From: Bryobacterales bacterium
Lineage (GTDB): Bacteria > Acidobacteriota > Terriglobia > Bryobacterales > Bryobacteraceae
Direction of reading: 5' to 3'
Assembly (NCBI GenBank): GCA_043755435.1
Contig: JAYUSZ010000181.1
Span: 3,228-67,227 of the forward strand
DNA length: 64,000 nucleotides
A model generated the notes under the pieces. That model did not search any database. It worked only from the letters and a program-made list of their open reading frames with translations, and was not told the origin of the DNA. Numbering within the stretch: the first letter of the stretch is position 1; the number at the start of each line of letters is the position of its first letter. Position numbers and translations under genes: made by a program. Positions 9,431 through 27,517 of the stretch are shown here, one piece after another.

Positions 9431-9434
9431 CTCC

Positions 9435-10001: not shown

Positions 10002-10310
10002 ATGGAGGCACCAGCTGATTTCGAGCTTGTCGTCATGCTGGCGGTCTTGCAACTGCCAGGCAAAGCCTATGCCGTGTCCCTCCGCAGGGAAATTGAAGCC
10101 CGGGCGGAAGTGGAAGTGAATTATGGGTCTTTGTACGTAACACTGGAACAGTTGGAGCGTAAGAACTGGTTGCGTTCCAGCAATGGAACGGCAACATCGA
10201 ACCGCGGCGGTTGCCCTAAGCGGCTTTACTATTTCACAGCGGAAGGCCTGAAGGCTTTCCGAAACGCCGGGGTCCAAGTACAGCCCTTGTTGGATGAGCT
10301 TGCAAGTTAA
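10002..10310 (+). CDS. PadR-family transcriptional regulator
   Basis: Winged-helix pattern LVVMLAVLQLPGKAYAVSLRREIE...VNYGSLYVTLEQLERKNWLRS. ATG 10002 is preferred over TTG 9987. Confidence 0.8.
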   Translation: MEAPADFELVVMLAVLQLPGKAYAVSLRREIEARAEVEVNYGSLYVTLEQLERKNWLRSSNGTATSNRGGCPKRLYYFTAEGLKAFRNAGVQVQPLLDELAS

Positions 10311-11269
10311 TGCTGCCCATTTCACCCCGCCATTGGTACACATTAGCCAGACTTTCAGCCCCGCTGCATTTGGGCACCTCCGTCGCCGGTGACCTGCTGG
10401 AGGATTTCCCCGCAATTGCCCAAAAGCGCGGCGACGCATCAGCCCGCCGCTGGTTAGCATCCCAGGTGCTTTCCAGTATCCGTCTCTGGTTTTGGGACGA
10501 TATCAAACATTCCCCGGGCCAACTGGCATTGGGTGTTGCCTTGGGTATGCTCGCTTTTTTTGCCATCAGTGAGGTACTTACCCGCATCCATATATTAGAG
10601 GCGCAGATTCTTCACTTTGTCCTATTCCCATTTACACTAGCTTGGGTTGCAACACTCTTCATGCGTGGAAAGGAGCTATCAGTTGGCTTCCTTTCCGCCA
10701 TAGCTTTAACCTGCCTTCTCCTCCCCGCCAAGTTCTATGCCGTTACAAGCGGAATAGGTTGGATGGCCGGAGCAGGATTATGCAAGTGGCAGCGCGTCAA
10801 ACGCTATCGCAGCAAGGAGGAAGGACCCCAGGCGGTCTACCAAACAGTGACGCACTTTCAATATAGTTCCCTGATTGCCGCACCTGTGGAAACCGTGTTC
10901 GCCTTCCACGAGCGTCCCGATGCCATTCAAGTGCTCACCCCCTGGTGGCTGTTCCCGCGGTTTGAACGTCTCTGCGGAAAGGGCCTCGAAGCAGGTGTGG
11001 AGGTTATAGTAACCACCGCCGGTTTCGCAAAATGGCACGCCCGTCATGTGGCTTATGAAAAGAACAGCCTGTTTGTGGACGAAATGGTCAGCGGCCCCAT
11101 GAAGTCGTGGCGGCATGAACATCATTTCCAGAAACAGGATGGCGGCACACTGCTCACCGATTCAATCGACTTCGTTCCAATCGGCCCCGCTTGGCTAGTG
11201 AAATGGGGGCTTGGGTTATTGTTCCGATTCCGTCATGCTGTGACTCGAAAAGAGTGTGCTAACAACTGA
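10310..11269 (+). CDS. Membrane protein with C-terminal SRPBCC (START/cyclase-dehydrase-like) domain
   Basis: The start overlaps the padR stop (TAATG). The N-terminal cytoplasmic segment contains GDLLEDF...ARRW, followed by 3-4 hydrophobic helices. The C-terminal ~150 aa carry SRPBCC-like motifs (HFQYSSLIAAPVETVFAFHERPD, WRHEHHFQ..DGGTLLTD). Confidence 0.65.
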   Translation: MLPISPRHWYTLARLSAPLHLGTSVAGDLLEDFPAIAQKRGDASARRWLASQVLSSIRLWFWDDIKHSPGQLALGVALGMLAFFAISEVLTRIHILEAQILHFVLFPFTLAWVATLFMRGKELSVGFLSAIALTCLLLPAKFYAVTSGIGWMAGAGLCKWQRVKRYRSKEEGPQAVYQTVTHFQYSSLIAAPVETVFAFHERPDAIQVLTPWWLFPRFERLCGKGLEAGVEVIVTTAGFAKWHARHVAYEKNSLFVDEMVSGPMKSWRHEHHFQKQDGGTLLTDSIDFVPIGPAWLVKWGLGLLFRFRHAVTRKECANN

Positions 11270-11364
11270 CATCTCATCAGCCGCTACTAACCTCGGATAT
11301 TTTGCGTCTGGGTCCGCTAAAATCTCCCCAAACAAACTTTAATTCAAAGTATTACCATTTGAAT

Positions 11365-11700
11365 ATGGCGAAATCCAGTCCAAAGCTCCGTGTGAAAAAA
11401 CCCACCAGCCTTCTAAACAAACCCGTTAAAGCAAACTTCAAAGACCTCTTCAAGGGACTTGCCAAGTTTGCAACGCACACCTTAACTTTCAAGTGGGAAG
11501 ATCTGCCAGCGGACGGGGTTGAATCCCTCGCTGCTCTCAACTTGGTTACAGAACCAAGCGAGCTTGCATTCGAACTGATTCAACGTGCCCTTTCCAATGC
11601 GGTAATACACGCTGATAGGAGAAAGTTCCAACCAACTGACCGTTATGAAAGATGCCGACCGGATGGCAGAGCAGTTGGATTACGAGATATCGTATCGTGA
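11365..11700 (+). CDS. Hypothetical ORF, probably the detached 5' part of the NACHT gene
   Basis: ATG 11365 (MAKSSPKLRVKKPT...). The last ~30 codons are Arg-rich and look non-coding. They overlap the next ORF, whose frame is already open from 11606. Confidence 0.4.
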   Translation: MAKSSPKLRVKKPTSLLNKPVKANFKDLFKGLAKFATHTLTFKWEDLPADGVESLAALNLVTEPSELAFELIQRALSNAVIHADRRKFQPTDRYERCRPDGRAVGLRDIVS

Positions 11701-14038
11701 TATTCATTTCGACCCAAAGTTCCTCGACAGGCCTACTGAACTGCCCATGCTCAAAGACATGGAAGCACTCCTCGAGCAGTGGCTATCAGCTCAAACCGAA
11801 ACCGCCATTTCAGCAAAATTAATCGCGCAGCGGCTCCCCAGCTATTTCGTTTACGCGCTGAATCAAGAATGGCGCCGAAACACCAAATCCTATAAGCCTC
11901 TTCTCGATGCAATGGACACCCCCTTCAGCAAGGCTGGCGACCGCGAGTGGGCTTGGGCCGCATACTCCGCACTGCTCGACAAGCGAACACAGGAAGCCGT
12001 TTTTGACGAGTCCTTTGGTCTGGTTCAAATGTACGTTCCCTTGAATGCTTACTACGTGAAGGAGAAAGACGGCAAGGATTTACATGGTCCGAACAAAGAC
12101 AAACCTCGCCAGCGTATCGTTGTCGTCTTACAGCAGGAATTGGAAGGCTGGCTTCAGAAATCCAAATCGCAGGACGCGATTCGGGTGATAAGTGGTGGAC
12201 CGGGCAGCGGAAAGTCTTCCTTCGCCAGAATCTTCGCTGCGCACCTTTCCAAAAACCAAGGGCTAAAAGTTTTATATGTCCCTCTGCACTTGATTGACGC
12301 AACAAAAGACCTGGTCGATGAAGTGGGACGGTTTGTCAGGGATGAAGGGATACTTTTGCAAAACCCTCTAGACCCAGCTTCACCTGAATCAAACCTGCTA
12401 ATCATCTTCGACGGCCTCGATGAATTGGCCAGCCAAGGAAAGGTTGCTGCAGAAACAGCTAGATCTTTCGTCAGGGAGGTGGAAAGAACAGTTGAAAAAC
12501 GAAATCTCCAAAGCGTCAAGCTTCGAATTCTGCTCTGTGGTCGTGAATTGGTGGTGCAAGACAATGAATCTGAATTTCGGCGCGAGGGGCAGATCCTCAC
12601 ACTATTGCCCTATTTTGTTGGTGGGCTCTCAAAGGATCAGCCGCGTCGGTTGCATGACGGAGAGCAATATCACGATCCCAAAAAAATATTGGAACAGGAT
12701 CTGCGAAATCGTTGGTGGAAGAACTATGCTCAACTCACGGGCAGAAGCTACCAAGGCCTACCAAAGGAGCTGGATCGCCCGGATCTCGAAGAAGTTACGG
12801 CACAACCACTTCTCAATTACTTGGTTGCCCTCAGCTATACACGTGGGGGGTTAGATTTCACCAAAGGAGTGAACCTCAATTCGATTTACCAGGACCTTGT
12901 GAAGGCAGTCCACGAACGCGGCTATGAAAAGAGTCGTGCCTTTGTACCCATTAGAAGTATGAACTTCCAGGACTTCTTTCGGGTTCTTGAAGAAATAGGA
13001 CTGGCAGCCTGGCACGGTGATGGAAGAACCACAACAGTAAAGGAAATCGAGAACCATTGCAGCAACAGCGGGCTTGGCGGCTTGCTGCAGACCTTTAAGG
13101 AAGGGGCGGAAGCGGGTGTAACTCGATTGCTCGCAGCCTTTTTCTTTCGACAATATGGGCAACGACAAAGCGGGGATCCCACCTTTATATTCACGCATAA
13201 GAGTTTCGGCGAGTACCTCACCGCTCGAAGGATTGTGCGCGCAGTAGAAAGCATTGTCAGAGAATCAGAACGTCATGCCGATTATCCGGATGGTGGTTGG
13301 GATGAGAAAAGTGCGCTTAAGCATTGGGTTCAGGTTTGCGGACCCAGCGCAATGTCACAATATCTGCACACATTCCTCCTCAACGAAATTGAATTGCGGG
13401 ATGCAGGTATTCAGGCAAAGTGGCAAACACATTTGGCAAAGCTATTTAGTTATATGTTGCGACACGGAATGCCGATGGAGCTCCAGCCGCTGTCTTTTAG
13501 AGAAGCGATGTTCCAATCCAGAAATGCCGAAGAGTCCTTGCTTGTCGCTTTGAACGCATGCGCTAGAAATACAAAGCAGTTGAGTCCAATAGAATGGCCG
13601 ACTCCGACCACCTTCGGAGAATGGTTTAAGCGGATACAGGGCCAAAGAACAGGCGGTGAATCAGCACTTGCCGCAGACGGCCTTTCATACTTGGATTTGA
13701 GCTCATCAATACTGTTCAATGGCGATTTCTACGGATCGAATCTTAGCTCTTCCCGTATAAGCTCGGGCACTTTTGCTTGCTTTGTTACAGCCAGCCTTCA
13801 AAACGCCAATCTACAGGGGGCCTTCCTCATAAACGCTAACCTCGAAGGCGCTAACCTCGAAGGCGCCGACCTCAAAGTCGCCTATCTCGACCGCGCCCAC
13901 CTCGAACGCGCCCACCTCGAACGCGCCAACCTCGAGGGTGCCAACCTCACAGGGGCGACCGTCGAAATAAACCAATTATCACTTGCTATTACAGACTCGA
14001 CGACAAAGGGAATGCCTACTGTCCGTAAAATCAAGTAA
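11645..14038 (+). CDS. NACHT-type STAND NTPase with C-terminal pentapeptide-repeat domain
   Basis: Walker A is GGPGSGKSSF and Walker B is LLIIFDGLDEL, followed by a long helical/winged-helix region. The C-terminus has 11 consecutive A(N/D/H)L(E/Q)(G/R) pentapeptides. Confidence 0.85.
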   Translation: MKDADRMAEQLDYEISYRDIHFDPKFLDRPTELPMLKDMEALLEQWLSAQTETAISAKLIAQRLPSYFVYALNQEWRRNTKSYKPLLDAMDTPFSKAGDREWAWAAYSALLDKRTQEAVFDESFGLVQMYVPLNAYYVKEKDGKDLHGPNKDKPRQRIVVVLQQELEGWLQKSKSQDAIRVISGGPGSGKSSFARIFAAHLSKNQGLKVLYVPLHLIDATKDLVDEVGRFVRDEGILLQNPLDPASPESNLLIIFDGLDELASQGKVAAETARSFVREVERTVEKRNLQSVKLRILLCGRELVVQDNESEFRREGQILTLLPYFVGGLSKDQPRRLHDGEQYHDPKKILEQDLRNRWWKNYAQLTGRSYQGLPKELDRPDLEEVTAQPLLNYLVALSYTRGGLDFTKGVNLNSIYQDLVKAVHERGYEKSRAFVPIRSMNFQDFFRVLEEIGLAAWHGDGRTTTVKEIENHCSNSGLGGLLQTFKEGAEAGVTRLLAAFFFRQYGQRQSGDPTFIFTHKSFGEYLTARRIVRAVESIVRESERHADYPDGGWDEKSALKHWVQVCGPSAMSQYLHTFLLNEIELRDAGIQAKWQTHLAKLFSYMLRHGMPMELQPLSFREAMFQSRNAEESLLVALNACARNTKQLSPIEWPTPTTFGEWFKRIQGQRTGGESALAADGLSYLDLSSSILFNGDFYGSNLSSSRISSGTFACFVTASLQNANLQGAFLINANLEGANLEGADLKVAYLDRAHLERAHLERANLEGANLTGATVEINQLSLAITDSTTKGMPTVRKIK
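13790..13954 (+). repeat. 15-nt-periodic tandem repeat encoding the pentapeptide-repeat domain
   Basis: GCNAACCTCGAAGGC-like units are repeated in frame (ANLEGANLEGADLKVAYLDRAHLERAHLERANLEGANLTG). Confidence 0.9.
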
Positions 14039-15505: not shown

Positions 15506-17056
15506 TTACAGCTTCAATTCCCAACCTTTCTTGAACACCGGCTTGACGAACTTATTGGCTTCCACACTATTGGTGAAGCGCATGTTTTTTGCGTCCCAAT
15601 CCAACTTGCCTGGAACATGCAGGGAAATTGCGGCCAATGCCAACCACTCTGCGTAAGGTGCTGTAACGCTGAAATCGGAACAGGAAGTTTCACCACCCTT
15701 GCAGGCGCGGACCCAATCCAACATGTGCCCAGGTGATCGTGTTAGTAACTGTGGAGGCAGGCGATATTCCTTCCATCGCGCTTCCGGAAGTAAGTGCACA
15801 CCCTCGCCGCGCGATGAAGTCGCCATCACACCTTTTGATCCAATGAACACTGCTCCGTTACCGCTCAAAATTCCAGGCTGCGCTGCGGGACCGCGCGATC
15901 CAAACACCTTCACGCCAGGACCACCGGCACCCATCGCCGGCATCGCGCCACCCGTTGGCGGTGGACCACCTTTGCGATTTGCGCCACCAGCACCACCGGC
16001 GCCGCCTCTTCTGCCACCCTCACTTTGGCCTCGTCCCTTGTCTCCCAAATTATTCACCGGCGGCAGAATGGCTTCGTTTTCCATGCCTGGAATGCGGTAA
16101 GCCAACGGATCGTCGGAACGCGGCCCGTCGTGATAATAGACTTTGACTGGTGGCATACCGCCACGTGCTGGAAAATCAAGCCGCACTACAGCCTGCGTTG
16201 GATAGGTAACGGAACTGGCGCCTTCCACGCGAATGCATTCAATGCTGGTAGGCGCACCCAATTGCAGAGCAACATGTACCGGACCTGCGGTATGAGTTGC
16301 CCAATTGCCGATTTGCCCGGTTCCGAATTCCAGGAATCCGCGCCAATTGTAAGGCACGTAATAGGAACTAAACGGACGTTGCGACGCGCCGCCCAACCAC
16401 AGGTTCCAATCAATGGTGCTGGGCACAGATTCCGATGGAGGCAAGTCTTTGAGCGCGGTGGGATGAGTTCCCGGAGTTACTGAAATGTGCGCTTCGGTGA
16501 CGTCACCAATTTCGCCAGACCACACAATTTCCGCTGCCACGCGATTGGCTTCGTGCGAAAATCCTTGATTGCCCATCTGCGTGGCCACTTTGTATTTGGC
16601 CGCTGCGTCCATTAGCAAACGCGCTTCCCATGGTGTGCGGGTAAGTGGCTTTTCACAGTAAACGTGCTTTCCGCGTTGCATGCAGGCGAGCGCGACGGTA
16701 GCGTGCATGAAGTCTGGAATGCCGATTGTGACGGCATCAATATTCTTGCCTTCCTTATCCAGCATCACCCGGAAGTCTTTATACTTTGGGACCTTAGAAT
16801 ATTTTTGAAAATTCGCTGCCGCACGGGCTTCATCCACATCGCACATTGCGACAATATTTTCAGTTCTTGCGGCATCGTTTAGATCAACGCCGCCCTGACC
16901 GCCGCAACCAACTGCGGCCACATTCAATTTGTCGTAAAAGGGTTTGTACCCCAGCGCTCGTAGAGAAGGAACCGAGCCAAACCCCGCAGCGGGAACGGGG
17001 CCAGCGAGCAATGCCCCGAAAAAGAAGTGACGTCGCGAGACGTTGTTGTCAGACAT
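15506..17056 (-). CDS. Tat-signal Gfo/Idh/MocA-family oxidoreductase with Gly-rich insertion
   Basis: Twin-arginine leader (SRRHFFFGALLAG), Rossmann motif VAAVGCGGQGG and EKPL motif. There is a ~55-aa G/P/A-rich low-complexity insert. Confidence 0.85.
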   Translation of the reverse strand: MSDNNVSRRHFFFGALLAGPVPAAGFGSVPSLRALGYKPFYDKLNVAAVGCGGQGGVDLNDAARTENIVAMCDVDEARAAANFQKYSKVPKYKDFRVMLDKEGKNIDAVTIGIPDFMHATVALACMQRGKHVYCEKPLTRTPWEARLLMDAAAKYKVATQMGNQGFSHEANRVAAEIVWSGEIGDVTEAHISVTPGTHPTALKDLPPSESVPSTIDWNLWLGGASQRPFSSYYVPYNWRGFLEFGTGQIGNWATHTAGPVHVALQLGAPTSIECIRVEGASSVTYPTQAVVRLDFPARGGMPPVKVYYHDGPRSDDPLAYRIPGMENEAILPPVNNLGDKGRGQSEGGRRGGAGGAGGANRKGGPPPTGGAMPAMGAGGPGVKVFGSRGPAAQPGILSGNGAVFIGSKGVMATSSRGEGVHLLPEARWKEYRLPPQLLTRSPGHMLDWVRACKGGETSCSDFSVTAPYAEWLALAAISLHVPGKLDWDAKNMRFTNSVEANKFVKPVFKKGWELKL

Positions 17057-17084
17057 GCCTTACATTATATAGTCCGGTAAGGAA

Positions 17085-19382
17085 CTAGGGCAGGGAAAAT
17101 GTCAACAGAGTGGAATCGTTTGCAATCGCGATGAACTGCTTACCATCCACGGAATAGGACATCGGAGAACTGCGCATCGAAGCGCCAGTCTGGTAGTGCC
17201 ACAAAATCTTGCCGGAAATGGCATCGAGAGCAATGAAATTTCCCTCTTTCGATGCTGCAAATACTGCGCCTCCAGCCGTTGCCAGCACTCCCGCAGCATG
17301 GGAACCGATTTGGATTGGAGTGCTCCACTTCACGTCGCCGGTGGCCGGATCGAGGGCACGGATAAAGCCTTGCTCTCCTTGCTTTTCATCTTCCCGCTGG
17401 CCGCCGCCTGTATACGGTTGGCCTGGCTCGGGCCTCTTGATTACGCTTGTGTAAGTGGCACAAGTCTCTCGCACAGCAACATAGAAGAGCCCGGTTTTCT
17501 CGCTATAAGATGGCGCGGCGAAGTTAGCGGCACCCAATGCATCGGGGCAAACATAGTTCCCTTCAGGTGTGGGGTCGGTTCCTGGGATAACAATTGGATG
17601 GCCGCGAGCATCCAAACCCTTCGCCCAGGTTTGCTTTGCAAAGGCCTTGCCAGTAACAAACTCGCCTGTGATTCGGTCAATCGCATAATAGAACGCATTG
17701 CGATTGGCCATGATCAGCAACTTACGCATTTGTCCCTTCACCATTGCGTCAATTAACACCGGCGTTTCATTGGCATCCCAATCATGCACGTCGTGAGGAG
17801 TGTATTGGAAATACCATTTCAGCCGTCCGGTAGTAGGGTCAAGTGCCAACACGCTGCAGCTGTATAAGTTATCGCCAGCGCGCACAGTGCCTTCATAATC
17901 TGGGCCGGGGTTTCCTGTGGTCCAAAACAGTGTGTCGGTAGCGGCATCATAAGTTCCAGTCATCCAAGTTGGCGCGCCGCCATATTTTGCGGAATCTCCA
18001 GCCCAGCTTGCTCGATTCGGATCTCCAGGTTGTGCCACGGAGTGTGTGCGCCACAGCTTCTTGCCAGTAGTTGCGTCAAAGCCGTCCACCCAACCACTTA
18101 GTGCGCACTCGCCGGAAGTAACTCCTACAAAGACCTTGTTATTCACAACTAACGGAGCATGTGTAATGGAAAAGCCCTTGCGATAGTCTTCCACTTCAAC
18201 ATCCCAAATAACTGCGCCCGTTTTGGCATCAAGAGCAACCAGGTGGGCATCGAGAGTTGCAAGGTAAACGCGATCACCAAGAATTCCGACGCCACGATTC
18301 GTCATCACTGTGCAGTAATTGTGAACCTCCGGCAGGCGGCGTTTGTAGTCCCAAATCTTGCGGCCGTTGCGTGCATCAAGGGCAGCCATGTTGCTGCCAG
18401 GACCAGTGACGAACATTACTCCATCGGCGACAATGGGAACGGTTTCAATATTCGATGCACCGAACTGGTGCGACCAGGCACTTTGCAGGGAAGCCACATT
18501 GGATGGAGTAACTTGTGCTAGCCGGGAATAGTGGCGACCGTTAAGGTCCCCCCAATAAGTGAGCCAGTTATGAGGTTCGCTTGCCGCTTGCTTGATACGA
18601 GTGCTGGTAATGTTGAAATCGGCAGAGGGGGTCCATGGCATGGGTTCAGCCTTGCCGGTTTTTAGGAAGGCCAGAAGATCGGAAGTGACTGCGGCATCGA
18701 GGGTCATTTTGGGCATCAGCGATTGATGGGTTTGCTTCACTTCAGTAAGGGCAGACTTACTCAGCAACTGCAGCCGACCTGTTGTATCCATCATCTGTAA
18801 AGAGAAAGTGTCTTCGTTCTTTGCAACTCCAGTAAGCTTCCGGCCGTCTTTGAAAGTAACTTCAACGGTGCGATAGCCGCTGCGCAGCGCAGCACTCGGA
18901 TCTTCAATCGACTTGCGTAACTCGGCTACTTTACGTTCCGTGCCAGCATTGGTCAAATCGGGTCCCAGCCGTCCGCCGCGACCTTGAAACATATGGCAGT
19001 TTCCACACTTTGCTGAACCGAAAAATAGCGCTGCACCTGTTTCAGCATTCCCCGTTACCGCCTCATCCGGTTTACTGCTTTCAAGTGATCGCAGATAAGC
19101 CACAATGGCCTTTGTATCGTCATCAGGCATTGCGAAAGCAGGCATCTGCGTACCTGCAATCCCCTTGGCGATGTTGCGCGCAATGGCCTCATCACTGCCG
19201 CCGAATTTCCAATCACCACGCGTCAAATTTGGAGCGCGGCCGCCTTGAGCTTTGGCACCATGGCATGCTGTGCAGGATTTATCGAACAACCCTGCGCCTT
19301 TCTGAACGGCGGTTTCGTGAGGAGACTGAGCCAGCAGAGCAGTGGAAACAATCAGAAGGAATTGAGCAGGACGAGCACGCAT
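17085..19382 (-). CDS. PQQ-dependent dehydrogenase (beta-propeller) with two N-terminal c-type cytochrome domains
   Basis: Signal peptide, then two CxxCH motifs (CTACH, CGNCH). These are followed by a quinoprotein-dehydrogenase-like propeller (NWLTYWGDLNGRHYSRLAQVTPSNV, repeated W-containing blades). Confidence 0.85.
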   Translation of the reverse strand: MRARPAQFLLIVSTALLAQSPHETAVQKGAGLFDKSCTACHGAKAQGGRAPNLTRGDWKFGGSDEAIARNIAKGIAGTQMPAFAMPDDDTKAIVAYLRSLESSKPDEAVTGNAETGAALFFGSAKCGNCHMFQGRGGRLGPDLTNAGTERKVAELRKSIEDPSAALRSGYRTVEVTFKDGRKLTGVAKNEDTFSLQMMDTTGRLQLLSKSALTEVKQTHQSLMPKMTLDAAVTSDLLAFLKTGKAEPMPWTPSADFNITSTRIKQAASEPHNWLTYWGDLNGRHYSRLAQVTPSNVASLQSAWSHQFGASNIETVPIVADGVMFVTGPGSNMAALDARNGRKIWDYKRRLPEVHNYCTVMTNRGVGILGDRVYLATLDAHLVALDAKTGAVIWDVEVEDYRKGFSITHAPLVVNNKVFVGVTSGECALSGWVDGFDATTGKKLWRTHSVAQPGDPNRASWAGDSAKYGGAPTWMTGTYDAATDTLFWTTGNPGPDYEGTVRAGDNLYSCSVLALDPTTGRLKWYFQYTPHDVHDWDANETPVLIDAMVKGQMRKLLIMANRNAFYYAIDRITGEFVTGKAFAKQTWAKGLDARGHPIVIPGTDPTPEGNYVCPDALGAANFAAPSYSEKTGLFYVAVRETCATYTSVIKRPEPGQPYTGGGQREDEKQGEQGFIRALDPATGDVKWSTPIQIGSHAAGVLATAGGAVFAASKEGNFIALDAISGKILWHYQTGASMRSSPMSYSVDGKQFIAIANDSTLLTFSLP

Positions 19383-19411
19383 GAAGTGAATTCTATCGCA
19401 ACAACCATCTG

Positions 19412-20059
19412 CTAAGGTAACTCTTTCTCAATCCTGTTCAAAAGCCGTTCGACGAACCGAACGCCCTTATCTCCGGTGCGTTGCACGTGATACATCAGCC
19501 CGACTTGCTTGTAAAGCGACATTGCCTCGTGAAGATCGGCCATCACATCGTCGATAGGTCGAAAACGAACGGGCGAGCAACCCAGAACCATGTCCACTGA
19601 AATATCCAATCGCTGAAGTGATGTTCTGGGTCGGTACCTTCGATTGCCGGAAAAACACTGAAACCCCAACTCCTCCAAGAGTTGATGAGCAACTCCCGAT
19701 GTCTTGTTCCATGGCGGCACATATCCCACGATAGGTTCCCCAATGGCCTGTTGTAGAATCTGTTTCCCATGCTCCAATTCTTTGCTTATCAGACTTCGCT
19801 CTAAGTGACCTGGAAATTCATCGGAGTAGCCTGACGGCCGCGCGCGATTGATATGCGCATAGCCGTGCTGAAATACTGCAATGCCGGGGCGCTCACGAAA
19901 CATGCGTGAAGTTGCCGCTTCAAGGTGTTGTGGGATCACTGCCGCGATGGTTGGCAATTGCCGTTCCCGCAGCGTCCGCAACACGCCATGGACTGCGACA
20001 TCATCTGGACCCACGTCATCCAAACGATGGAACAAAGTCGATTGCAACAAATGTTTCAT
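19412..20059 (-). CDS. Polysaccharide-deacetylase-like protein (DUF2334-like)
   Basis: FHRLDDVGPD and QHGYAHIN motifs resemble the Asp and His metal/catalytic motifs of the CE4/DUF2334 fold. Start ATG 20059 forms an ATGA overlap with the upstream stop. Confidence 0.5.
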   Translation of the reverse strand: MKHLLQSTLFHRLDDVGPDDVAVHGVLRTLRERQLPTIAAVIPQHLEAATSRMFRERPGIAVFQHGYAHINRARPSGYSDEFPGHLERSLISKELEHGKQILQQAIGEPIVGYVPPWNKTSGVAHQLLEELGFQCFSGNRRYRPRTSLQRLDISVDMVLGCSPVRFRPIDDVMADLHEAMSLYKQVGLMYHVQRTGDKGVRFVERLLNRIEKELP

Positions 20060-20805
20060 CGCCGAAAAGCTCCCCCGCCACACTTGCCCATCAACCCTTC
20101 AGGACGTGAAACGCTGCGATAGTGAAATACAAAACTGGAAGGCACAAAGCCAGTGACCATCCCTGCCTTCTTCCATCGCTTTTGCAATTCAGTCTCATTG
20201 CCAACTAGCCGAAATCCAGGATCAAAAACGCAATGCCGGGAAAACGCACCCTGCCTCCATCGCTCTGTTTTAGCCATCATAAAAAAGCCGTTTATGGGTG
20301 CAGAAACCGCATCAGGTGCAGCTTTACGCAGCGCTCGTGCAATGGAATCGATCTGCTTTGGGGAATCAGTCACCGCCTCAGTATTAGACAAGTAGCATTG
20401 CACATCCTGGCCCGGGGCATCCCCCGGGGCGTTTGTTACTGGGCCCACTAAGTCGAATCCATTTTCCAAAGCATTAGCCAATGGTTCAAACCAATGCGGG
20501 GAAAATTGCACGTCGCTATTGGTGCAAACTGAATACTCCGCGCCGATCGATACAGCCTCGCGAAGCCCCGCATTCCAGGAACGCGTCAAGCCACCTCTTC
20601 TGGAAAATCGCAGCTTGTGGCAATCCGGCTCAGGCCAAGTTTTCCAATCAACCGCATCCCATTCGGGACTTGCATCATCCACCAACAGGTACTGTAGCGT
20701 GGCTCCTCGCACGGGGCAGCGCAACAGAGATTGCACTGCCCGGCGAGCATATTCAAAATGATTGAACGTGGGAATGATGACGCATACGGTTGGTGGCATA
20801 CTCAT
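20056..20805 (-). CDS. Family-2 glycosyltransferase
   Basis: VCVIIPTFNHFEYARRAVQSL...LVDDASPE (GT-A fold with DxD-type motif). Start ATG 20805 overlaps the upstream stop as ATGA. Confidence 0.8.
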   Translation of the reverse strand: MSMPPTVCVIIPTFNHFEYARRAVQSLLRCPVRGATLQYLLVDDASPEWDAVDWKTWPEPDCHKLRFSRRGGLTRSWNAGLREAVSIGAEYSVCTNSDVQFSPHWFEPLANALENGFDLVGPVTNAPGDAPGQDVQCYLSNTEAVTDSPKQIDSIARALRKAAPDAVSAPINGFFMMAKTERWRQGAFSRHCVFDPGFRLVGNETELQKRWKKAGMVTGFVPSSFVFHYRSVSRPEGLMGKCGGGAFRR

Positions 20806-21878
20806 CCAGCCTTTTGTCGCGCTTGCCAATAGGGTGCGCTGGGCCATCGTGTTTCAAGCTGATATTGTTCCAAGCAGCCTGCCAGGTAAGCATCATACGA
20901 TCGTTGCATCACATGGATGTAGGCTAGCTGCGCCTCCCTGTTTCCACTCAACATTTCGGCGGCCGCATGGGCTGCATAATATCCAGAGCCCATGGCCGCG
21001 CCGATGCCGTAGGACGACACCGGATCGTGAGCTGCGGCCGCGTCACCAACGGCTATCCATGCATCCCCAGCAATGGATTCCAATTGTTCGCTTCCTGCAG
21101 GCCAGACGCGCAATGGCCCATTCAAGCTTCCGCCATAAGCTTCCACTCTGGCAAGACTATGCGGTGCGGCGCGCATCAAGGTTAACCAACCTTCCTCTGT
21201 GCGTCCCTGCGTATACTCCGGCAAATCTGAATCAGTTAGGAAAATTACCGATAGTTTTCCGTCGCGAAGCAATCCCGAATACCACCAGCCAGCAGGTACG
21301 GTTTCAACCAATGTGAAGGTGTCTTCCATGCTGCCATTTCGAAAGTCGCCGGCAATTGCCAACTGCTTGTCGTGACGTGCCCGGACAATGCCCATGCCAC
21401 GAGCAATGGAAGCTCGTCGACCAGTAGCATCAATCACAAATTGAGCGGTGATCTGTTTGCCATCGACAATCAGCGACCACTGCTGATCCTCCCACCGGCA
21501 ACTGGTAACCGCCGTGCCGAAGTTCCACTGCGCACCACATTCCACAGCGGAACAAGCAAGCATCGCAGCAAACGCGCGCCGGTCCAATCGCCATCCCGAA
21601 CCGTTCTTGCGTAGGATCGCATCGAAATCATGAACTTCGTCAGATCCCCAAGCAGCGCGATTTCCATGCACGCGGGCATGTGGGCCTGCATTCAATTTTG
21701 CTTCCAGATTCAGCTTCCTGATGAGTGGAGCAAAATCCGCAGGCAGACAATCACCGACGTGGGATGGAGCTTCCGGCTCCCGTTCAAAAACAGCTACAGA
21801 AACGCCGCGGCTGGCAAGCACCATCGCCGCAACAGCACCAGCTGGACCACCGCCTGCGATGGCAACTTCCAGCTTCAT
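20802..21878 (-). CDS. FAD-dependent flavoprotein, LodB/GoxB-like (candidate CTQ-maturation enzyme)
   Basis: N-terminal dinucleotide-binding motif VAIAGGGPAGAVAAMVLASRGVSVAVFERE; halogenase/geranylgeranyl-reductase-like size (358 aa). It lies immediately downstream of the LodA-like gene and is ATGA-coupled to it. Confidence 0.65.
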   Translation of the reverse strand: MKLEVAIAGGGPAGAVAAMVLASRGVSVAVFEREPEAPSHVGDCLPADFAPLIRKLNLEAKLNAGPHARVHGNRAAWGSDEVHDFDAILRKNGSGWRLDRRAFAAMLACSAVECGAQWNFGTAVTSCRWEDQQWSLIVDGKQITAQFVIDATGRRASIARGMGIVRARHDKQLAIAGDFRNGSMEDTFTLVETVPAGWWYSGLLRDGKLSVIFLTDSDLPEYTQGRTEEGWLTLMRAAPHSLARVEAYGGSLNGPLRVWPAGSEQLESIAGDAWIAVGDAAAAHDPVSSYGIGAAMGSGYYAAHAAAEMLSGNREAQLAYIHVMQRSYDAYLAGCLEQYQLETRWPSAPYWQARQKAG

Positions 21879-23749
21879 GCTTTCGAACGGGGCTGTACAC
21901 GATTCAGAGCTTGAGTTGAGTGTGGAACTGGGGCTAGAAGGGGAGCTTCAGCATGTGTCAACTGATGCAACGAAGCATCGTGAACGCTGAACTTGTCCGA
22001 CCGGCCAATTTCCACCCACATTTCCGCAGGCATTCCCAAATCTGCGTGATCATCTGGTCCAAGTTGCCTGGTGACAATTCCTAACAAGTCCCACTCAGCA
22101 ATCATGTTGTTGATCCTGGTTTGAAAGCCTGCTTTCAAGTCACGCATCCAAAACAGCCGGTAATCAAAATGTTTTAGGCGCTGTGCTTTAGTAAGGGAAG
22201 TGTCCTTTGCCCGTTGATATCCATCCAGCGGGTAGACAGTGTTGGGCACCCGTGCAGGCCAATAAGCAGGCAAAGGTAAGTAAGTAGATTGATCGTAACC
22301 TGCAAGGCAACTTGCGGCATCAGTGTGCCAGGGAACTCCAGTCCATCGTGTTATGGATCCTGGCCCACTAGTCATCAGTGGACCACCAGGGTACATGCAA
22401 TGTGCGGGCCGAAGAATAGGACCATAGTCGTCAATTACAGGAGCACCCTCCGGGGCAACATTCAATCGGAAGGGAGCTTTCCACATGATTGCCGAACGGA
22501 ATATCCATGTTATTTCAATGCCTGGATGAAACGGCCCACCCAAACATTGTTCCAATGCTGAGCGGTCAAGCGCCGCCGTGCGATCGGCAATCGGCAGGTC
22601 TTCAAGAACGGCGGGTGTACTAAGAAACCCCGTCAAATCATTTTCAAAATCACCCAGGGACCAGCGTTCCAACCAATCGTGCTGGGTGTGAGTGATAGAC
22701 AAATACTGAAACGGGGTGTTTGGAAAATCACCATGCCCGTCTCCATACATCGGCGGCAGTTTTTCTGCTTGCACCTGCTGGCCGCTTGGGTCGCGGAAGT
22801 TGCTAAAAACAGTTTTCCGCAAACCCTCATTCGTTGGCGAAGGGTCAGCTAGTTTCAGCAGATTTTCCCGCAGCGTGAATTCGCTGGGTGAATTTGCACC
22901 AAACAGGAAATAGTAACCTTGGTTGACCCACTGTAGATCCACCATGCGATGCAGGATGGGGCGGATATGTTGGGTGAACATGATTTTCTTAACCGGTGGA
23001 ATCATGCCTTGTCGTGTATATAGATCAATCACTACGTCATACATGGTTACCGGCGAATCGATACCTGGGGCGAAGTTCGGCGGGGTCACCACAACTGTTG
23101 CGGGCTCGGCTTCAAAGGTGTGGTTGCCAACCGTGATGGTGGCGCGAACGGGCCCGTCGGAAGTATCGTCATACCAACCGTCGTTATTGGCAAATGTGGT
23201 GGCCGGTATCGAAGAGTGGTCGAACGCAGCACCTAAACCTCGGCCACCTAAAACTATCAGGCGTCCTTTATCGTCGGTACGCAATTCACCCAGATAAACC
23301 TTGATTCCTTCGCATTCGCCGGTATCGAATAGCTTGCCTTGTTGATCGATGCCGGAAATGGATCGGGGCCCAGGATCAATCACCAGCTTGGCCCGATCGG
23401 CACCCACATAGTTCATGTTTCGGAAAGTTGACTCCAGCGCGAAGTCTCCCAAATCCATTGCATTGTTAAATTGATACCAGGCGGATTTCCGATTGGCGAT
23501 GTGGACGCGCCAATCGATTTTCGCATCGGTGTCTGTGATCTCCTGAACTGCTTGTCCGTTGGCATCCAATCCGAAAACGCGAAACAGCGCAGCTTGACGC
23601 TTCACTCGGCCTTGGGCATCTTTGAATGGTGGAGGTGGGCTGTGACCGGGGAGATCCGGGGAAAGAAAAAACTCGTCTGGAGAATTGCCTACCCGGGCAA
23701 TTCCAATGCCCGGGTAGATGGCGTAGCTAACAACTGTATCTAGCACCAT
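21875..23749 (-). CDS. LodA/GoxA-family quinoprotein amino-acid oxidase homologue
   Basis: Blocks I recall as conserved in L-lysine epsilon-oxidase LodA: IYPGIGIARVGNS at the N-terminus, WRVHIANRKSAWYQF, DPGPRSISG, GRLIVLGGRG, NNDGWYDDTSDGPV, TPPNFAPGI, HPGIEITW, VPWHTDAASC and AYWPARVPN. AAGGA lies 9 nt upstream of ATG 23749. Confidence 0.7.
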   Translation of the reverse strand: MVLDTVVSYAIYPGIGIARVGNSPDEFFLSPDLPGHSPPPPFKDAQGRVKRQAALFRVFGLDANGQAVQEITDTDAKIDWRVHIANRKSAWYQFNNAMDLGDFALESTFRNMNYVGADRAKLVIDPGPRSISGIDQQGKLFDTGECEGIKVYLGELRTDDKGRLIVLGGRGLGAAFDHSSIPATTFANNDGWYDDTSDGPVRATITVGNHTFEAEPATVVVTPPNFAPGIDSPVTMYDVVIDLYTRQGMIPPVKKIMFTQHIRPILHRMVDLQWVNQGYYFLFGANSPSEFTLRENLLKLADPSPTNEGLRKTVFSNFRDPSGQQVQAEKLPPMYGDGHGDFPNTPFQYLSITHTQHDWLERWSLGDFENDLTGFLSTPAVLEDLPIADRTAALDRSALEQCLGGPFHPGIEITWIFRSAIMWKAPFRLNVAPEGAPVIDDYGPILRPAHCMYPGGPLMTSGPGSITRWTGVPWHTDAASCLAGYDQSTYLPLPAYWPARVPNTVYPLDGYQRAKDTSLTKAQRLKHFDYRLFWMRDLKAGFQTRINNMIAEWDLLGIVTRQLGPDDHADLGMPAEMWVEIGRSDKFSVHDASLHQLTHAEAPLLAPVPHSTQALNRVQPRSKA

Positions 23750-23761
23750 GAGATTGAATCC

Positions 23762-23989
23762 TTACTTCTTTTTCTTAGCGGCAACCTTCTTAACTACTTT
23801 CTTGCCAGGCTGTGTTCCCTTTGCTACAACTTTCTTCTTCGCTTTGCCACCAGGGGTTCCCTTAGCTACAACCTTCTTCTTCGCTTTACCGCCAGGAGTC
23901 CCCTTTGCTACGACCTTCTTCGCTTTACCACCAGGGGTTCCTTTTGCTACAACCTTCTTCTTTACTACTTTTTTCGTTGCTGATTTCAT
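23762..23989 (-). CDS. Lysine-rich repeat protein (histone-H1-like composition), 75 aa
   Basis: ATG 23989 with AAGGAG 7 nt upstream. The sequence is MKSATKKVVKKK(VVAKGTPGGKAKK[K])x3 VVAKGTQPGKKVVKKVAAKKKK, with 29 Lys of 75 residues and no acidic residue. The three full repeats differ only at synonymous third positions. Confidence 0.7.
   Translation of the reverse strand: MKSATKKVVKKKVVAKGTPGGKAKKVVAKGTPGGKAKKKVVAKGTPGGKAKKKVVAKGTQPGKKVVKKVAAKKKK
23798..23953 (-). repeat. 39/42-nt tandem repeat inside the Lys-rich ORF
   Basis: GTT GTA GCA AAA GGA ACC CCT GGT GGT AAA GCG AAG AAG and two further copies plus a partial fourth. Confidence 0.9.
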
Positions 23990-24011
23990 TCTGATTCTCC
24001 TTTTATTCCAG

Positions 24012-24959
24012 TCATCTTTTACGAGCGACCGGCTTACTCGTTGTCCGTCGGAATCGACGGAAAAACCATGCATCATCATGCACTCTACGTTCAGACCAGC
24101 GAGCCCGGCGCACCGCCGCGTCGCTATCTACTGTGAGTGCCAGTGCTGCAGAAAAACCTTCATACTCCTGCAGTGCGTCCACAACCTGTTTGAATCGGGT
24201 GGGTGCAAAGTGGATCATTGCCAACCGCAACCGGTTGTGAAGAATTGTGGCTGATTCAATCGGATAGGGTTGCTCAAGTTGGCGGAAGAAGTGCAGCACC
24301 TCCACCGAAGGCTCAATCCATTGTTCATAACCCAACAGCCACAACCGCATAAAGAACTCGTTATCCACTCCGCCGGAGCAAATCATGCCATCGTCGAACC
24401 CACCCACTTTTTCAAAAACGTCGCGGCGGATAGCTACGCAACATCCAGGCAGAATCGGCACACGAGTCGGGCGTCCTTTGGTTTCATCTACCCAGGCTGC
24501 ATTCAAGGCGTCGTCCTGCAGGTAAAGCCCAAAGCCACGCCACTCACGATTTTCAACGTCAATGATGGTTGGTGCCGCACCACCCACTGAAGGATCAGCA
24601 GCGCGCTCCAACAGTGGTTGCCACCAATTTTCCTGAAGCCAAATGTGAGCATCGCAAAAAATCAGAACCCTGCCTCGCGTATTCTTCGCTCCGAAGTTGC
24701 GAGCACCGGCTACACCAAGGCCAGAGGATCGCAATAGTTTTGCTGGTGCATGGCGGCTGTTCAGGAAGCGAGTTGACCCGTCCGTTGAACCATCATCCAC
24801 CACCAACATTTCGGTACTGGAAGGTAATGTGTCTCGCAAATTTTCCAATGTTTGGCGGAGATATGCACGCTCGTTGCGAGCGATCACCACTACACTCATG
24901 TCTATTTTGTTCGTGGAAGGGGGCATTTTCCTATTGAACTTGTAATGGGATAGTACCAT
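24012..24959 (-). CDS. Family-2 glycosyltransferase
   Basis: MSVVVIARNERAYLRQTLENL...MLVVDDGSTDGS. The true start may be ATG 24926 or 24899 rather than 24959. Confidence 0.8.
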   Translation of the reverse strand: MVLSHYKFNRKMPPSTNKIDMSVVVIARNERAYLRQTLENLRDTLPSSTEMLVVDDGSTDGSTRFLNSRHAPAKLLRSSGLGVAGARNFGAKNTRGRVLIFCDAHIWLQENWWQPLLERAADPSVGGAAPTIIDVENREWRGFGLYLQDDALNAAWVDETKGRPTRVPILPGCCVAIRRDVFEKVGGFDDGMICSGGVDNEFFMRLWLLGYEQWIEPSVEVLHFFRQLEQPYPIESATILHNRLRLAMIHFAPTRFKQVVDALQEYEGFSAALALTVDSDAAVRRARWSERRVHDDAWFFRRFRRTTSKPVARKR

Positions 24960-24985: not shown

Positions 24986-25726
24986 ATGAGCAACGAGCTA
25001 ATTTCCTGCATCCTCGCTACGCGCAATCGCCAGCGATTCATTGAACAAGCGCTTCGATGCTTCGAAGCACAGACATATCGGAACAGCGAATTAATAGTCG
25101 TCGATGATGGAGACGAACCAGTGCGAAACGCATGCCTGGGCCGTCGAAACGTACGTTACATCGGCTTGCCAACGCCCACATTGACCGGTACGAAAATGAA
25201 CATTGGCATAGCAAGTGCCAGTGGCAACATACTGCAGAAGTACGATGACGATGATTATTATCATCCGAAATTTCTTGAGACTGCTATAGCGCACATGCCT
25301 GTCCGCGGGCGTGATCACGCGATTGTTGCCTGGGATTGTTTCCTTGGTCTTGAAGTGGGAGACCCACAGATTCGTTTTTCCGGACATGGTTGGAAGGTTG
25401 GTGGAACGCTTTCGTTTAGCCGCGCACTGTGGGAGAGAAAACCATTTCGCGATCTGCCGCGGTCGATTGATTCCTGGTTTCTGAAAGACCACAAAAAATC
25501 TGCGCGCGTGATTCCTGTATGCGCACCGCAGTATTACGTAGTGGTGCGGCATGGTAACAACACCTGGAAATATGTTGACTACGGCCGCCCCGTGGAAGAC
25601 TATTTCAAAGAGTTGGATGTGTGGCCGAAGCCCATTGAAAAAGTTGTGGCACGGCGTGATCGGGAATTCTATTTGTCGCTAGTGAATGCAGATAAGCCAA
25701 AGCGCACCCGGTGGATAAGAATATGA
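24986..25726 (+). CDS. Family-2 glycosyltransferase
   Basis: ISCILATRNRQRFIEQALRCFEAQTY...LIVVDDGDE. It is transcribed divergently from the minus-strand cluster. Confidence 0.75.
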   Translation: MSNELISCILATRNRQRFIEQALRCFEAQTYRNSELIVVDDGDEPVRNACLGRRNVRYIGLPTPTLTGTKMNIGIASASGNILQKYDDDDYYHPKFLETAIAHMPVRGRDHAIVAWDCFLGLEVGDPQIRFSGHGWKVGGTLSFSRALWERKPFRDLPRSIDSWFLKDHKKSARVIPVCAPQYYVVVRHGNNTWKYVDYGRPVEDYFKELDVWPKPIEKVVARRDREFYLSLVNADKPKRTRWIRI

Positions 25727-26089: not shown

Positions 26090-27517
26090 ATGAACCAGAT
26101 GTTCCCATCATTCTCTTTATCCAGGCGCGGATTGCTATCCGCTTTGGCCTTCCCCGCTATTGCGGCACCTAAACAAACTTCCATCCGCGTTGAGGAAGTA
26201 AGTTTCTCATTTGAAGATATTCGCTATCGCTCTCCATACAAGTTTGGAGGTGTGGCAGTGGACCGTGCCACCTTGCTGAATGTGCAATGCACAGTGCGAA
26301 CGCGCAATGGAAAAATGGCAAAGGGGTTTGGTTCCATGCCCCTTGGAAACGTGTGGGCTTTCCCTTCGCGCACGCTTCCTTACGATGGAACGTTAGGTGC
26401 GATGAAAGAGTTGGCCAGCAGGCTTGGGCCACTAACCGCAAGCTATAAAGAATACGGCCACCCAATCGACATCAATACCGCTTTGGAACCAGCCTACTTG
26501 AAGGCTGCGGCGGAAGCCAGTGCCGCTTTGAAGCTTATAGTTCCCATTCCGAAACTTTGCACGCTGGTAACAGCCAGCCCATTTGATGTGGCAATTCACG
26601 ATGCTTTCGGCAAAGTACACAAACGGAATTGCTACTCCACTTACGGCCCCGATCTGATGGAGCGGGATTTGTCAGCCTACCTTGGCACTTCCTTCCGTGG
26701 TGAGTATCTGAACAAGTATCTGCTTCAAAAACCCCGCCCCTCCGTGAATTTGTACCATTCAGTTGGCGGGTCGGATTCGCTGACTGCCGAGCAATTGACA
26801 ACGCGAATCAACGATGGATTACCGGAAACACTTCCCGATTGGATTCGCTACAACGGACTGCACCATATCAAAATAAAGCTGCAAGGTGATGAACTGAAAT
26901 GGGACGTGGACCGCGTGGTTGCCATTGATAGAATCGCGCAGGAAACCAGTCCTGCTGTTGATTGGCGTTATTGTGTGGACTTCAACGAACGCTGCCCGAA
27001 CGTGGAATATCTGCTGGAGTTTCTACGCAAGGTGAAGGAGCAAACTCCCAAAGGTTTTGAGCGAATTGAATACATTGAGCAACCAACTGCCCGTGATTTA
27101 AAGGCTGATCGGGCCAATGTGATGCATCAGGCGGCGAAGCTACGTCCAGTGGTGATTGACGAATCACTGACAGATCTTGAAGCGCTGCTTATGGCAAGGG
27201 AGCTTGGATATTCGGGAATCGCATTGAAAGCCTGCAAAGGGCAAAGCCAAGCAATGCTTATGGCGGCAGCAGGACAGAAGTACAAGATGTTTCTTTGTGT
27301 TCAGGACTTGAGTTGCCCGGGCGCTTCCTTGATTCATTCGGCTAGCATCGCCTCGCGCGTTCCCGGCGTTTCTGGAATCGAAGCGAATTCACGGCAGTAT
27401 CTACCATCTGCGAACCAAGCGTGGGCTGGTAAATTTCCGGGAATTTTCGCCATTAAGAAGGGCGTGCTGGATACGTCCCGACTTGACGGAATGGGCATCG
27501 GTGCAGTCGACGCTTGA
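26090..27517 (+). CDS. Enolase-superfamily (mandelate racemase/muconate-lactonising-enzyme-like) protein with Tat-type signal
   Basis: [17 protein letters not shown] leader. Candidate catalytic/metal motifs appear in the canonical order: HIKIKLQG (KxK), DFNE, IEQP, VIDES, ALKACKG. The start is 1 nt after the upstream stop. Confidence 0.65.

Follow-up and report, generated by a model that had tools for sequence, protein, structure and literature searches.

A LodA-family quinoprotein oxidase pair embedded in a conserved set of glycosyltransferase and putative deacetylase genes in a Bryobacterales bacterium

Quinoprotein oxidases of the LodA family carry a cysteine tryptophylquinone (CTQ) cofactor and are encoded next to the flavoprotein that matures it. 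The characterised systems, LodA/LodB of Marinomonas mediterranea and GoxA/GoxB of M. mediterranea and Pseudoalteromonas luteoviolacea, share the LodA_N and LodA_C domains, the Cys, Trp and Asp residues of the CTQ site and a downstream maturase gene, and they are two-gene operons whose products act on free lysine or glycine. A genomic survey from 2015 found that lodA-like genes are almost always followed by lodB, gave extra genes only for group ID and made no mention of glycosyltransferases; free L-lysine epsilon-oxidase and glycine oxidase are the only activities known for the family, and large uncharacterised groups have no assigned substrate (PMC4417212). A review from 2025 lists LodA, GoxA and QHNDH as the only CTQ enzymes (PMC11951088). 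Here, we describe a LodA/LodB-like pair from a Bryobacterales bacterium (Acidobacteriota), located in a stretch of 64,000 nucleotides (assembly GCA_043755435.1, contig JAYUSZ010000181.1, positions 3,228 to 67,227) that is referred to below as the window. Unlike the characterised pairs, this pair lies between glycosyltransferase genes and is followed by a gene for a protein that resembles carbohydrate esterases of family 4 (CE4). The pair itself is of a known kind, but we found no description in the literature of its conserved placement amid glycosyltransferases and a CE4-like enzyme. Neither the survey nor the reviews nor any paper retrieved by literature search links LodA-like genes to glycosyltransferases, in line with the statement in a first-pass annotation of this DNA, made by a model from the sequence, that no described system of such composition was known.

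The conserved unit, as predicted from gene order, is a set of six genes (Figures in brackets are window positions). A gene for a soluble family-2 glycosyltransferase of 246 aa (GT2c; 24986-25726, plus strand) is divergent, across a gap of 26 nt, from five minus-strand genes that encode a soluble glycosyltransferase of the GT-A type (GT2a; 24012-24959, 315 aa), the LodA/GoxA-family oxidase (21875-23749, 624 aa), the LodB/GoxB-like flavoprotein (20802-21878, 358 aa), a second, short and soluble family-2 glycosyltransferase (GT2b; 20056-20805, 249 aa) and, as the last gene of the module, a DUF2334/CE4-like putative metal-dependent de-acetylase (19412-20059, 215 aa). In the window, three more minus-strand genes belong to the same run: a small lysine-rich open reading frame (ORF) between GT2a and LodA, and genes for a quinohaemoprotein with a pyrroloquinoline quinone (PQQ)-type propeller and for a Gfo/Idh/MocA oxidoreductase behind DUF2334. 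The first-pass annotation had taken these eight co-directional ORFs as the unit. Their coordinates, the spacing between them (22, 12, -4, -4, -4, 29 and 28 nt) and also the ATGA overlaps at three junctions (plus-strand TCAT at 21875-78, 20802-05 and 20056-59), which join the LodA stop to the LodB start and GT2b to both of its neighbours, were all reproduced in the sequence, and the domain calls were all borne out by Pfam and NCBIfam profile searches. As regards the composition of the unit, GT2a, LodA, LodB, GT2b and DUF2334 are indeed conserved together; the PQQ, Gfo and Lys-rich genes occur in Bryobacterales only, and the divergent GT2c gene, which is conserved as well, had been missed.

The comparison covers 164 LodA-like loci (80 from species-representative genomes, 80 metagenome contigs and 4 contigs reached via individual homologues), a set that contains duplicates (e.g., L001 and L085 are the same) and that was screened with the eight window proteins as tblastn queries. 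Only in the lineage of the window (L005, L167, and L169) and in metagenome contig L001 does LodA have GT2b and DUF2334 homologues as neighbours. The approximately 160 other LodA-like loci are bare A-B pairs, none of them with a GT2b or DUF2334 homologue nearby, in agreement with the survey and with the initial remark that characterised LodA loci consist of two genes (PMC4417212). In L001, the order GT2a-LodA-LodB-GT2b-DUF2334 is syntenic, with GT2a overlapping LodA by 8 nt, and the identities to the window proteins are 63 % (LodA), 60 % (GT2a), 52 % (LodB), 59 % (GT2b), 62 % (DUF2334), and 62 % (GT2c). A third lineage, L165, was found via the DUF2334 homologue P0127 (56 % identity) and contains the end of LodA, LodB, a GT2 gene and DUF2334, followed by a convergent Uma2 gene; since only the last 34 residues of LodA are visible there, the LodA identity (63 %) was measured in L001. 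The accessory proteins are 50-63 % identical across the lineages. The guanine-plus-cytosine (GC) content is 51 % in the window and 66 % in both L001 and L165, a 15-point difference which implies that the synteny of the module spans distant organisms. The genes keep the same order and tight spacing at 50-63 % identity and are coupled in evolution. The neighbourhood comparison that had been proposed at the outset thus found the GT2 and deacetylase-like genes together with LodA/LodB in three lineages, while the Lys-rich ORF is absent from L001.

Several observations on these loci stand apart from the module. In L001, the module is followed by genes for a beta-eliminating lyase and a DNA ligase, and beside it (6201-8389) lie genes that encode a multi-pass membrane protein of 492 aa and an O-methyltransferase of class I, both without a counterpart in the window; the membrane protein was considered as a conserved partner of the GT-C type and rejected, as its PMT_2 match is below threshold and the window has no equivalent. 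Among the approximately 160 non-module loci, the microbial-mat contig L114 is the only one with a GT2a-like gene near LodA. There (4498-12942), genes for a methyltransferase and a GT2a-like protein (41 %) are found 3.8 kb upstream of a LodA-like (46 %)/LodB pair, and between the GT2a-like and the LodA-like gene lie two others, for a PD40-repeat Ser/Thr kinase and for a protein of 262 aa with no assigned function. As a further instance of the module this locus is only suggestive, since these two genes intervene and neither GT2b nor DUF2334 is present. None of the core proteins matched the anti-phage defence models of PADLOC.

The 624-aa oxidase contains the Pfam domains LodA_N (PF17990, 250.7 bits) and LodA_C (PF18417, 112.8 bits) and has no signal peptide, unlike the group II GoxA proteins, which carry a twin-arginine translocation (Tat) signal. 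Against the GoxA equivalog model NF038173 it scores 443 bits (cutoff 750; E 1e-132, residues 8-585), and against the LodA equivalog NF038172 195 bits (cutoff 600). By these profile scores it is a predicted CTQ protein of the LodA family that is neither a GoxA nor a LodA equivalog, and because it falls below both cutoffs a substrate cannot be transferred from either. It aligns to the solved structures of GoxA and LodA with E-values of 7e-55 and 2e-37. In the cofactor segment D477-A-A-S-C481 ... P-A-Y-W497 (22259-22321, minus strand), for which the translation was confirmed, the predicted CTQ residues are Cys481 (22307-22309) and Trp497 (22259-22261), and D477, C481 and W497 match the 'SDAASC...PSWW' of P. 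luteoviolacea GoxA (PlGoxA, chain 6byw; also 6vmv). The Cys, the Trp and the Asp four residues before the Cys are conserved across the alignment of LodA-like homologues, and both the CTQ residues and the overall length agree with those of the two-gene orthologues. The predicted maturase, the 358-aa flavoprotein, matches FAD monooxygenases (Pfam FAD_binding_3), and its best NCBIfam matches are GoxB (239.7 bits), LodB (228.3), and QhpG (169), all over the full length and all below the cutoffs (equivalog cutoff 400). Its gene directly follows that of the oxidase with a 4-nt overlap, a position and pairing that fit the LodB/GoxB family, and orthologues are found in L001 and L165 at 50-52 % identity. 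The profile searches thus place both ORFs where the first-pass annotation had put them, in the LodA/GoxA family, aligned across the cofactor region with the CTQ residues kept, and, as a putative member, in the LodB/GoxB family, respectively.

More than 3000 homologues of the LodA-like protein were found, the best at 90 % (same lineage) and 63 % identity; the next ones level off at 50-58 %, among them proteins from Pyrinomonadaceae, Thermoanaerobaculia, Dyadobacter, Archangium, and Streptomyces. The closest genome by this protein is a Bryobacterales metagenome-assembled genome, L005. Judging from the taxa among its homologues, the protein probably belongs to group III of the 2015 survey. When 121 homologues are aligned, the window protein groups with P0001 and P0002 in a clade of its own, which differs at nine positions whose conservation elsewhere is 85 % or more. 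Three of these flank the cofactor Trp (S495A, F496Y, and A498P, which turn PSFWAA into PAYWPA), three lie within the segment NFAPGI.SP, and one, F339H, lies inside the clade-specific segment YGDGHGDFPNTPFQ. The pattern is consistent with an altered substrate site in the cluster-linked clade, but is no proof of one. Large clade-specific indels that would open the active site were looked for in the alignment and rejected, as the indels comprise 2 residues only.

All three glycosyltransferases match the Pfam family Glycos_transf_2 (GT2a 101.8 bits, GT2b 58.7, GT2c 54.6), and GT2a in addition matches Glyco_transf_7C above the cutoff (25.9 bits). Their DxD or DxH motifs are conserved across the lineages (VVDDGS/CDAH in GT2a, VDDxS/TNSD in GT2b, and VVDDG/DDDD in GT2c), with VDDxSPEWD and TNSDV invariant in GT2b and DDDDYYHP in GT2c. 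The top 15 matches of GT2a in the Protein Data Bank (PDB) are polypeptide N-acetylgalactosamine (GalNAc) transferases (E 8e-16 to 1.6e-10), with which its DxH motif (CDAH) and its GGxxNE..RxW motif, typical of Gal/GalNAc-transferases, are aligned. GT2a is not a member of the polypeptide GalNAc-transferase family GT27, as only the catalytic domain is alike and both the C-terminal ricin-type lectin domain and the transmembrane segment of a type II anchor are missing, but from this alignment it may work like such an enzyme. By comparison with L001, its true start may be Met12 (24926). GT2b has weak PDB similarity to the catalytic domains of DPMS and ArnC, and its orthologues are 59 % (L001) and 63 % (L165) identical. 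GT2c resembles generic family-2 enzymes, e.g., heparosan synthase, and has orthologues in the same divergent position in L001 (62 %) and L005 (95 %). For both GT2a and GT2c, MftF is among the best NCBIfam matches, below the cutoff.

The last protein of the module matches Pfam DUF2334 (44.9 bits, cutoff 26) and Polysacc_deac_1 (27.5 bits, cutoff 23.1). In all 7 members of its subfamily and across three lineages, the motifs FHRxDDVGP, FQHGxxHxN, GYVPPWN, and MYHVQRTG are invariant, as are the residues of the metal-binding (Asp, His-x3-His) and catalytic (Asp/His) CE4 motifs, D14-D15, H65-G-Y-A-H69, Y113-VPPW, and H191; the HGYAH motif aligns to HGYSH of the peptidoglycan deacetylase HpPgdA of H. 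pylori (3qbu). An AlphaFold (AF2) model reached a predicted local distance difference test score (pLDDT) of 74.8 and a predicted template-modelling score (pTM) of 0.76. Its Foldseek matches with E <1e-3 all belong to the deacetylase superfamily and nearly all to CE4 (TM-scores 0.42-0.67), among them acetylxylan esterases, peptidoglycan and chitin deacetylases and ArnD. Motifs and model together point to a putative CE4-fold carbohydrate de-acetylase. A search of 5.8 billion proteins yields no more than 7 clusters of this subfamily, and wherever the flanks can be read, the gene lies behind LodB and GT2b. An exhaustive HMMER search of 1.84 billion representatives shows how isolated the subfamily is, with 381 bits for its own representative and 174 bits for the next relative.

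The wider relatives of DUF2334 adjoin glycosyltransferases or are fused to them (GT2-DUF2334, GT28C-DUF2334 and a giant GT28-GT2-radical SAM-DUF2334 protein), and such fusions give Rosetta-stone support for a DUF2334 domain that acts on the product of a glycosyltransferase. They are located in clusters rich in glycosyltransferase genes without LodA, which implies that the link to LodA is specific to the clade of the window. The giant, P0212 of the representative library (1065 aa), combines a GT28-C domain, a GT2 domain with Glyco_transf_7C as in GT2a, a radical SAM domain and DUF2334; six other relatives are GT28C-DUF2334 fusions, and P0274 pairs a DUF2334 domain with an alginate-export porin. 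The glycosyltransferase domain of the fusion P0163 was rejected as a GT2b orthologue (20 % identity, E 0.002). In L172 (1-11800), a sister DUF2334 gene is clustered with genes for GT9, GT28/EryCIII-like and GT4 glycosyltransferases, a 716-aa PP-binding protein and a 4'-phosphopantetheinyl transferase, and the gene immediately behind DUF2334 encodes a membrane-type PQQ dehydrogenase with 24 % identity to the quinohaemoprotein of the window. As this enzyme is of another subfamily, the adjacency of DUF2334 and PQQ genes was treated as coincidence and not as recurrent.

The small ORF between GT2a and LodA (23762-23989, minus strand) encodes 75 aa with approximately 40 % Lys in 'KKVVAKGTPGGKAKK' units. 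Its product can be written as MKSATKKVVKKKVV(AKGTPGGKAKK...)n...KKK and is encoded by a tandem repeat with a 42-nt period and 3.6 copies (23814-23962; Tandem Repeats Finder score 221, 82 % matches). The start codon, ATG at 23989, is preceded by an AAGGAG Shine-Dalgarno sequence 7 nt upstream. Four variants are known from the Bryobacterales lineage (the window, L005, L169, and P0128), which differ in repeat number but keep the frame; 'AKGT' is found in every repeat, with the Thr invariant in 14/14 units. In the three loci that were aligned, the indels measure 3, 6, 42, and 9 nt, all multiples of 3, the changes are mostly synonymous, and the ribosome-binding site and the start and stop codons are conserved. 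It follows from these in-frame indels, synonymous changes and conserved signals that the ORF is a genuine gene, inserted between GT2a and LodA in Bryobacterales only. In L005 (6246-6275) and L169 (6042-6070), gene callers start the ORF farther upstream, at an in-frame ATG that overlaps the stop codon of GT2a (ATGA). In the window (24010-24030), a 1-nt deletion shifts this ATG out of frame, which marks the ATG of MKSAT behind the Shine-Dalgarno sequence as the conserved start. The protein has no Pfam or NCBIfam match, and a single homologue, from the same lineage, was found among the 5.8 billion proteins. A relation to the histone H1-like HC2 family (PF07382, E 0.3-4.5, 8-11 bits, cutoff 40) was rejected as a compositional resemblance. 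Neither is the gene a universal substrate gene or a general component of the module: L001 lacks it and has no Lys-rich ORF within 22 kb, and no ORF with at least 20 % Lys was found in L001, L165, or L114. On the plus strand, gene callers could report a 168-aa ORF rich in Phe, Leu and Thr (23748-24254), which mirrors the Lys-codon repeat and is no gene.

Downstream of DUF2334 lie two genes that are not part of the core. The quinohaemoprotein (17085-19382, minus strand) has two N-terminal cytochrome c domains, a PQQ-type propeller and a general secretory (Sec) signal, which makes it a predicted periplasmic protein; it matches TIGR04528, 'acido-empty-quinoprotein group A', with 522 bits (cutoff 650) and is just above the subfamily cutoff of the methanol/ethanol PQQ dehydrogenases (495.6 vs 480). 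The Gfo/Idh/MocA protein (15506-17056, minus strand) carries a Tat leader with the twin-arginine motif SRRHFF, matches GFO_IDH_MocA with 73.5 bits and the BT_2158 family with 332 bits (cutoff 750), and resembles glycoside 3-dehydrogenases. Neither gene occurs in L001 or L165, in which DUF2334 is the final gene of the module; the PQQ gene is present in L005, L167, and L169, all of the Bryobacterales lineage. By distribution and leader peptides, they are predicted to be separate periplasmic neighbours of the module. The first-pass annotation had drawn the quinohaemoprotein into the pathway as a second quinoprotein, a claim that finds no support: the protein is restricted to this lineage and carries an export leader, unlike the core proteins. 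In L005 (13224-16181), the Gfo homologue is matched in several frames and approximately 1.5 kb of extra sequence separates the Gfo and PQQ genes, which hints at frameshifts or a faulty assembly.

The six core proteins all lack transmembrane segments and signal peptides, and in all three glycosyltransferases the maximum of the Kyte-Doolittle hydropathy over 19 residues is below 1.3. The lineages with the module share no conserved flippase, polymerase, priming transferase or exporter. The hallmarks of synthase-dependent exopolysaccharide systems (Pga/Ica, Bcs and Pel-like), a processive membrane GT2 with export components in the periplasm and outer membrane, are therefore lacking, and the envelope or extracellular-polymer role that was first proposed for the cluster finds no support in the core genes. 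We favor, with a probability of roughly 45 %, a reading in which the six core genes would form one cytoplasmic pathway, and the oxidase would deaminate an amine on a glycoconjugate that the glycosyltransferases make and the CE4-like enzyme deacetylates. In such a pathway, the LodB-like flavoprotein would mature the Cys481-Trp497 CTQ of the LodA-like enzyme by analogy with LodA/LodB and GoxA/GoxB. The three soluble GT-A transferases would build a short N-acetyl-hexosamine glycan on a soluble acceptor, from which the CE4-like enzyme would remove an acetyl group to expose a primary amine. The CTQ oxidase would then deaminate an amine of the same glycoconjugate to a carbonyl, with release of NH3 and H2O2; the amine just unmasked by the deacetylase would be the most economical candidate. 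In Bryobacterales, the Lys-rich repeat protein would be an addition to this scheme.

A number of points weigh against such a pathway. The substrate, the donor sugar and the acceptor are all hypothetical, and only three lineages with the module are known, in only two of which GT2a and GT2c are visible. Co-transcription is deduced from overlaps and gaps, and a scan for promoters and terminators returned counts equal to the shuffled expectation, i.e., at chance level. The DUF2334 model, made from an alignment of 7 sequences, is of moderate confidence (pLDDT 74.8). To our knowledge, the enzymes with CTQ, tryptophan tryptophylquinone (TTQ) or topaquinone (TPQ) cofactors characterised so far oxidise amines of the type R-CH2-NH2 (Lys epsilon, Gly alpha), so that oxidation of an unmasked hexosamine amine, which is borne by the secondary carbon C2, would be without precedent. 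An oxidase that produces H2O2 in the cytoplasm would be costly to the cell. LodA of M. mediterranea leaves the cells without a signal peptide, and the missing leader is thus no proof of cytoplasmic action.

It is also conceivable that the LodA/LodB pair is a stand-alone, H2O2-generating amino-acid oxidase that was inserted into a glycan-modification cluster, the shared order reflecting common descent or joint horizontal transfer. We regard this as rather unlikely. More than 150 orthologous LodA-like loci are bare two-gene units, sister DUF2334 proteins occur in glycosyltransferase clusters without LodA, only three lineages are known, and the oxidase, free of large indels, matches the two-gene orthologues in CTQ residues and length. 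However, order, overlaps and spacing persist at 50-63 % identity and across the 15-point difference in GC content, the pair is placed inside the set, between GT2a and GT2b, and not beside it, the DUF2334 subfamily of the window is never seen without the pair, and the clade-specific changes lie next to the cofactor Trp. The model of the first-pass annotation, in which all eight co-directional genes, including those for PQQ and Gfo, make up one pathway for the envelope or an extracellular polymer, is the least supported and very improbable, because the last two genes do not accompany the module in the other lineages and their products act in another compartment. The gaps of 29 and 28 nt without a detectable terminator suggest that they are co-transcribed with the module in this organism, L005 and L169 have the same order, and the distant sister DUF2334 gene in L172 is also followed by a PQQ dehydrogenase. 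Against this stand the absence of both genes from L001 and L165, the Sec and Tat leaders on their products as opposed to none on the core proteins, the different subfamily and 24 % identity of the L172 enzyme, and the lack of a transmembrane glycosyltransferase or an exporter.

The pathway could also be directed at a protein. GT2a would then O-glycosylate the Thr of the 'AKGT(P)' repeats in the Lys-rich protein, or the LodA-like protein itself, GT2b and GT2c would extend the glycan, the CE4-like enzyme would trim it, and the CTQ enzyme would be a peptidyl-lysine epsilon-oxidase that yields allysine for cross-linking in the manner of lysyl oxidase. The small gene lies 22 nt behind GT2a and 12 nt ahead of LodA and has a strong ribosome-binding site, it is present in 4/4 Bryobacterales variants with its Thr kept in 14/14 'AKGT' units and approximately 40 % Lys, GT2a finds its top 15 PDB relatives among the polypeptide GalNAc-transferases with catalytic motifs aligned, and LodA, the founder of the family, oxidises the epsilon-amine of lysine (PMC4417212). 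Conversely, the small ORF is missing from L001, which has no Lys-rich ORF within 22 kb, the oxidase scores nearer to GoxA than to LodA, and the likeness of GT2a to polypeptide GalNAc-transferases may reflect a shared GT-A/Glyco_transf_7C core, as few bacterial family-2 structures are in the PDB. Furthermore, the composition of the small protein would also suit a nucleic-acid binder like histone H1, and export signals are lacking. On balance this explanation appears unlikely. Its fullest form is more doubtful still: the module would be a bacterial counterpart of the lysyl-oxidase/matrix-protein system, in which an enzyme like a polypeptide GalNAc-transferase O-glycosylates the invariant AKGT(P) Thr of a Lys-rich disordered protein, and the CTQ enzyme oxidises peptidyl-lysine or a de-N-acetylated sugar amine of this glycoprotein to a reactive aldehyde for cross-linking. 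If true, a LodA-like quinoprotein would for the first time have a macromolecule or a glycoconjugate as its substrate.

Elsewhere in the window, a 797-aa STAND NTPase (NNH3 and NACHT domains, C-terminal pentapeptide repeats; 11645-14038, plus strand) gives a marginal match to the PADLOC model mad8 (E 7e-4). An enolase-superfamily (MR_MLE_C) gene is found at 26090-27517, and two giant outer-membrane proteins of the CarboxypepD_reg and OMP_b-brl_4 type (27603-31208, plus strand; 34235-37078, minus strand) enclose a 908-aa FAD_binding_4 protein (31221-33947, minus strand).

Comparison with other gene sets helps to place the six-gene module. Glycosyltransferases of family 2 are paired with CE4 enzymes that unmask a sugar amine in NodC/NodB, PgaC/PgaB (IcaA/IcaB), and ArnC/ArnD. 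The module shares with them a family-2 gene beside one for a CE4-fold de-acetylase or deformylase, with ArnD as a structural match and ArnC as a weak match of GT2b. However, the glycosyltransferases NodC, PgaC and ArnC are embedded in or anchored to the membrane and feed export or lipid-linked pathways, while the three of the window are short and soluble and have no conserved exporter, and the window has an amine oxidase in place of an acyltransferase (NodA) or a transfer step (ArnT). Lysyl oxidase acting on elastin and collagen, MftD with the family-2 glycosyltransferase MftF in mycofactocin biosynthesis, and KanJ in that of kanamycin may serve as analogies; they are alike only in the chemical logic by which a primary amine of a macromolecule or a glycosylated substrate becomes a carbonyl. 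The window oxidase is not homologous to lysyl oxidase (lysine tyrosylquinone, copper), MftD (flavin mononucleotide), or KanJ (a 2-oxoglutarate dioxygenase), and the module has no genes for a radical-SAM enzyme, a peptidase or aminoglycoside synthesis. Within the LodA family itself, the operons of group ID have recruited extra genes too, namely a small gene and tyrosinase and multicopper oxidase genes (PMC4417212). Their small gene, located between A and B, codes for 138-142 aa, whereas that of the window encodes 75 aa, is rich in Lys, lies upstream of A and is specific to one lineage, and the partners here are family-2 glycosyltransferases and a CE4-like enzyme.

For the LodA family, the module is a testable lead to a new class of substrates, amines on glycoconjugates or glycopeptides, and it points to a biosynthetic rather than an antimicrobial role for a CTQ oxidase. 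It also gives the DUF2334 subfamily a working context. If a deacetylated sugar amine or a peptidyl-lysine is indeed oxidised, this would be new quinoprotein chemistry and possibly a useful enzyme for bioconjugation.

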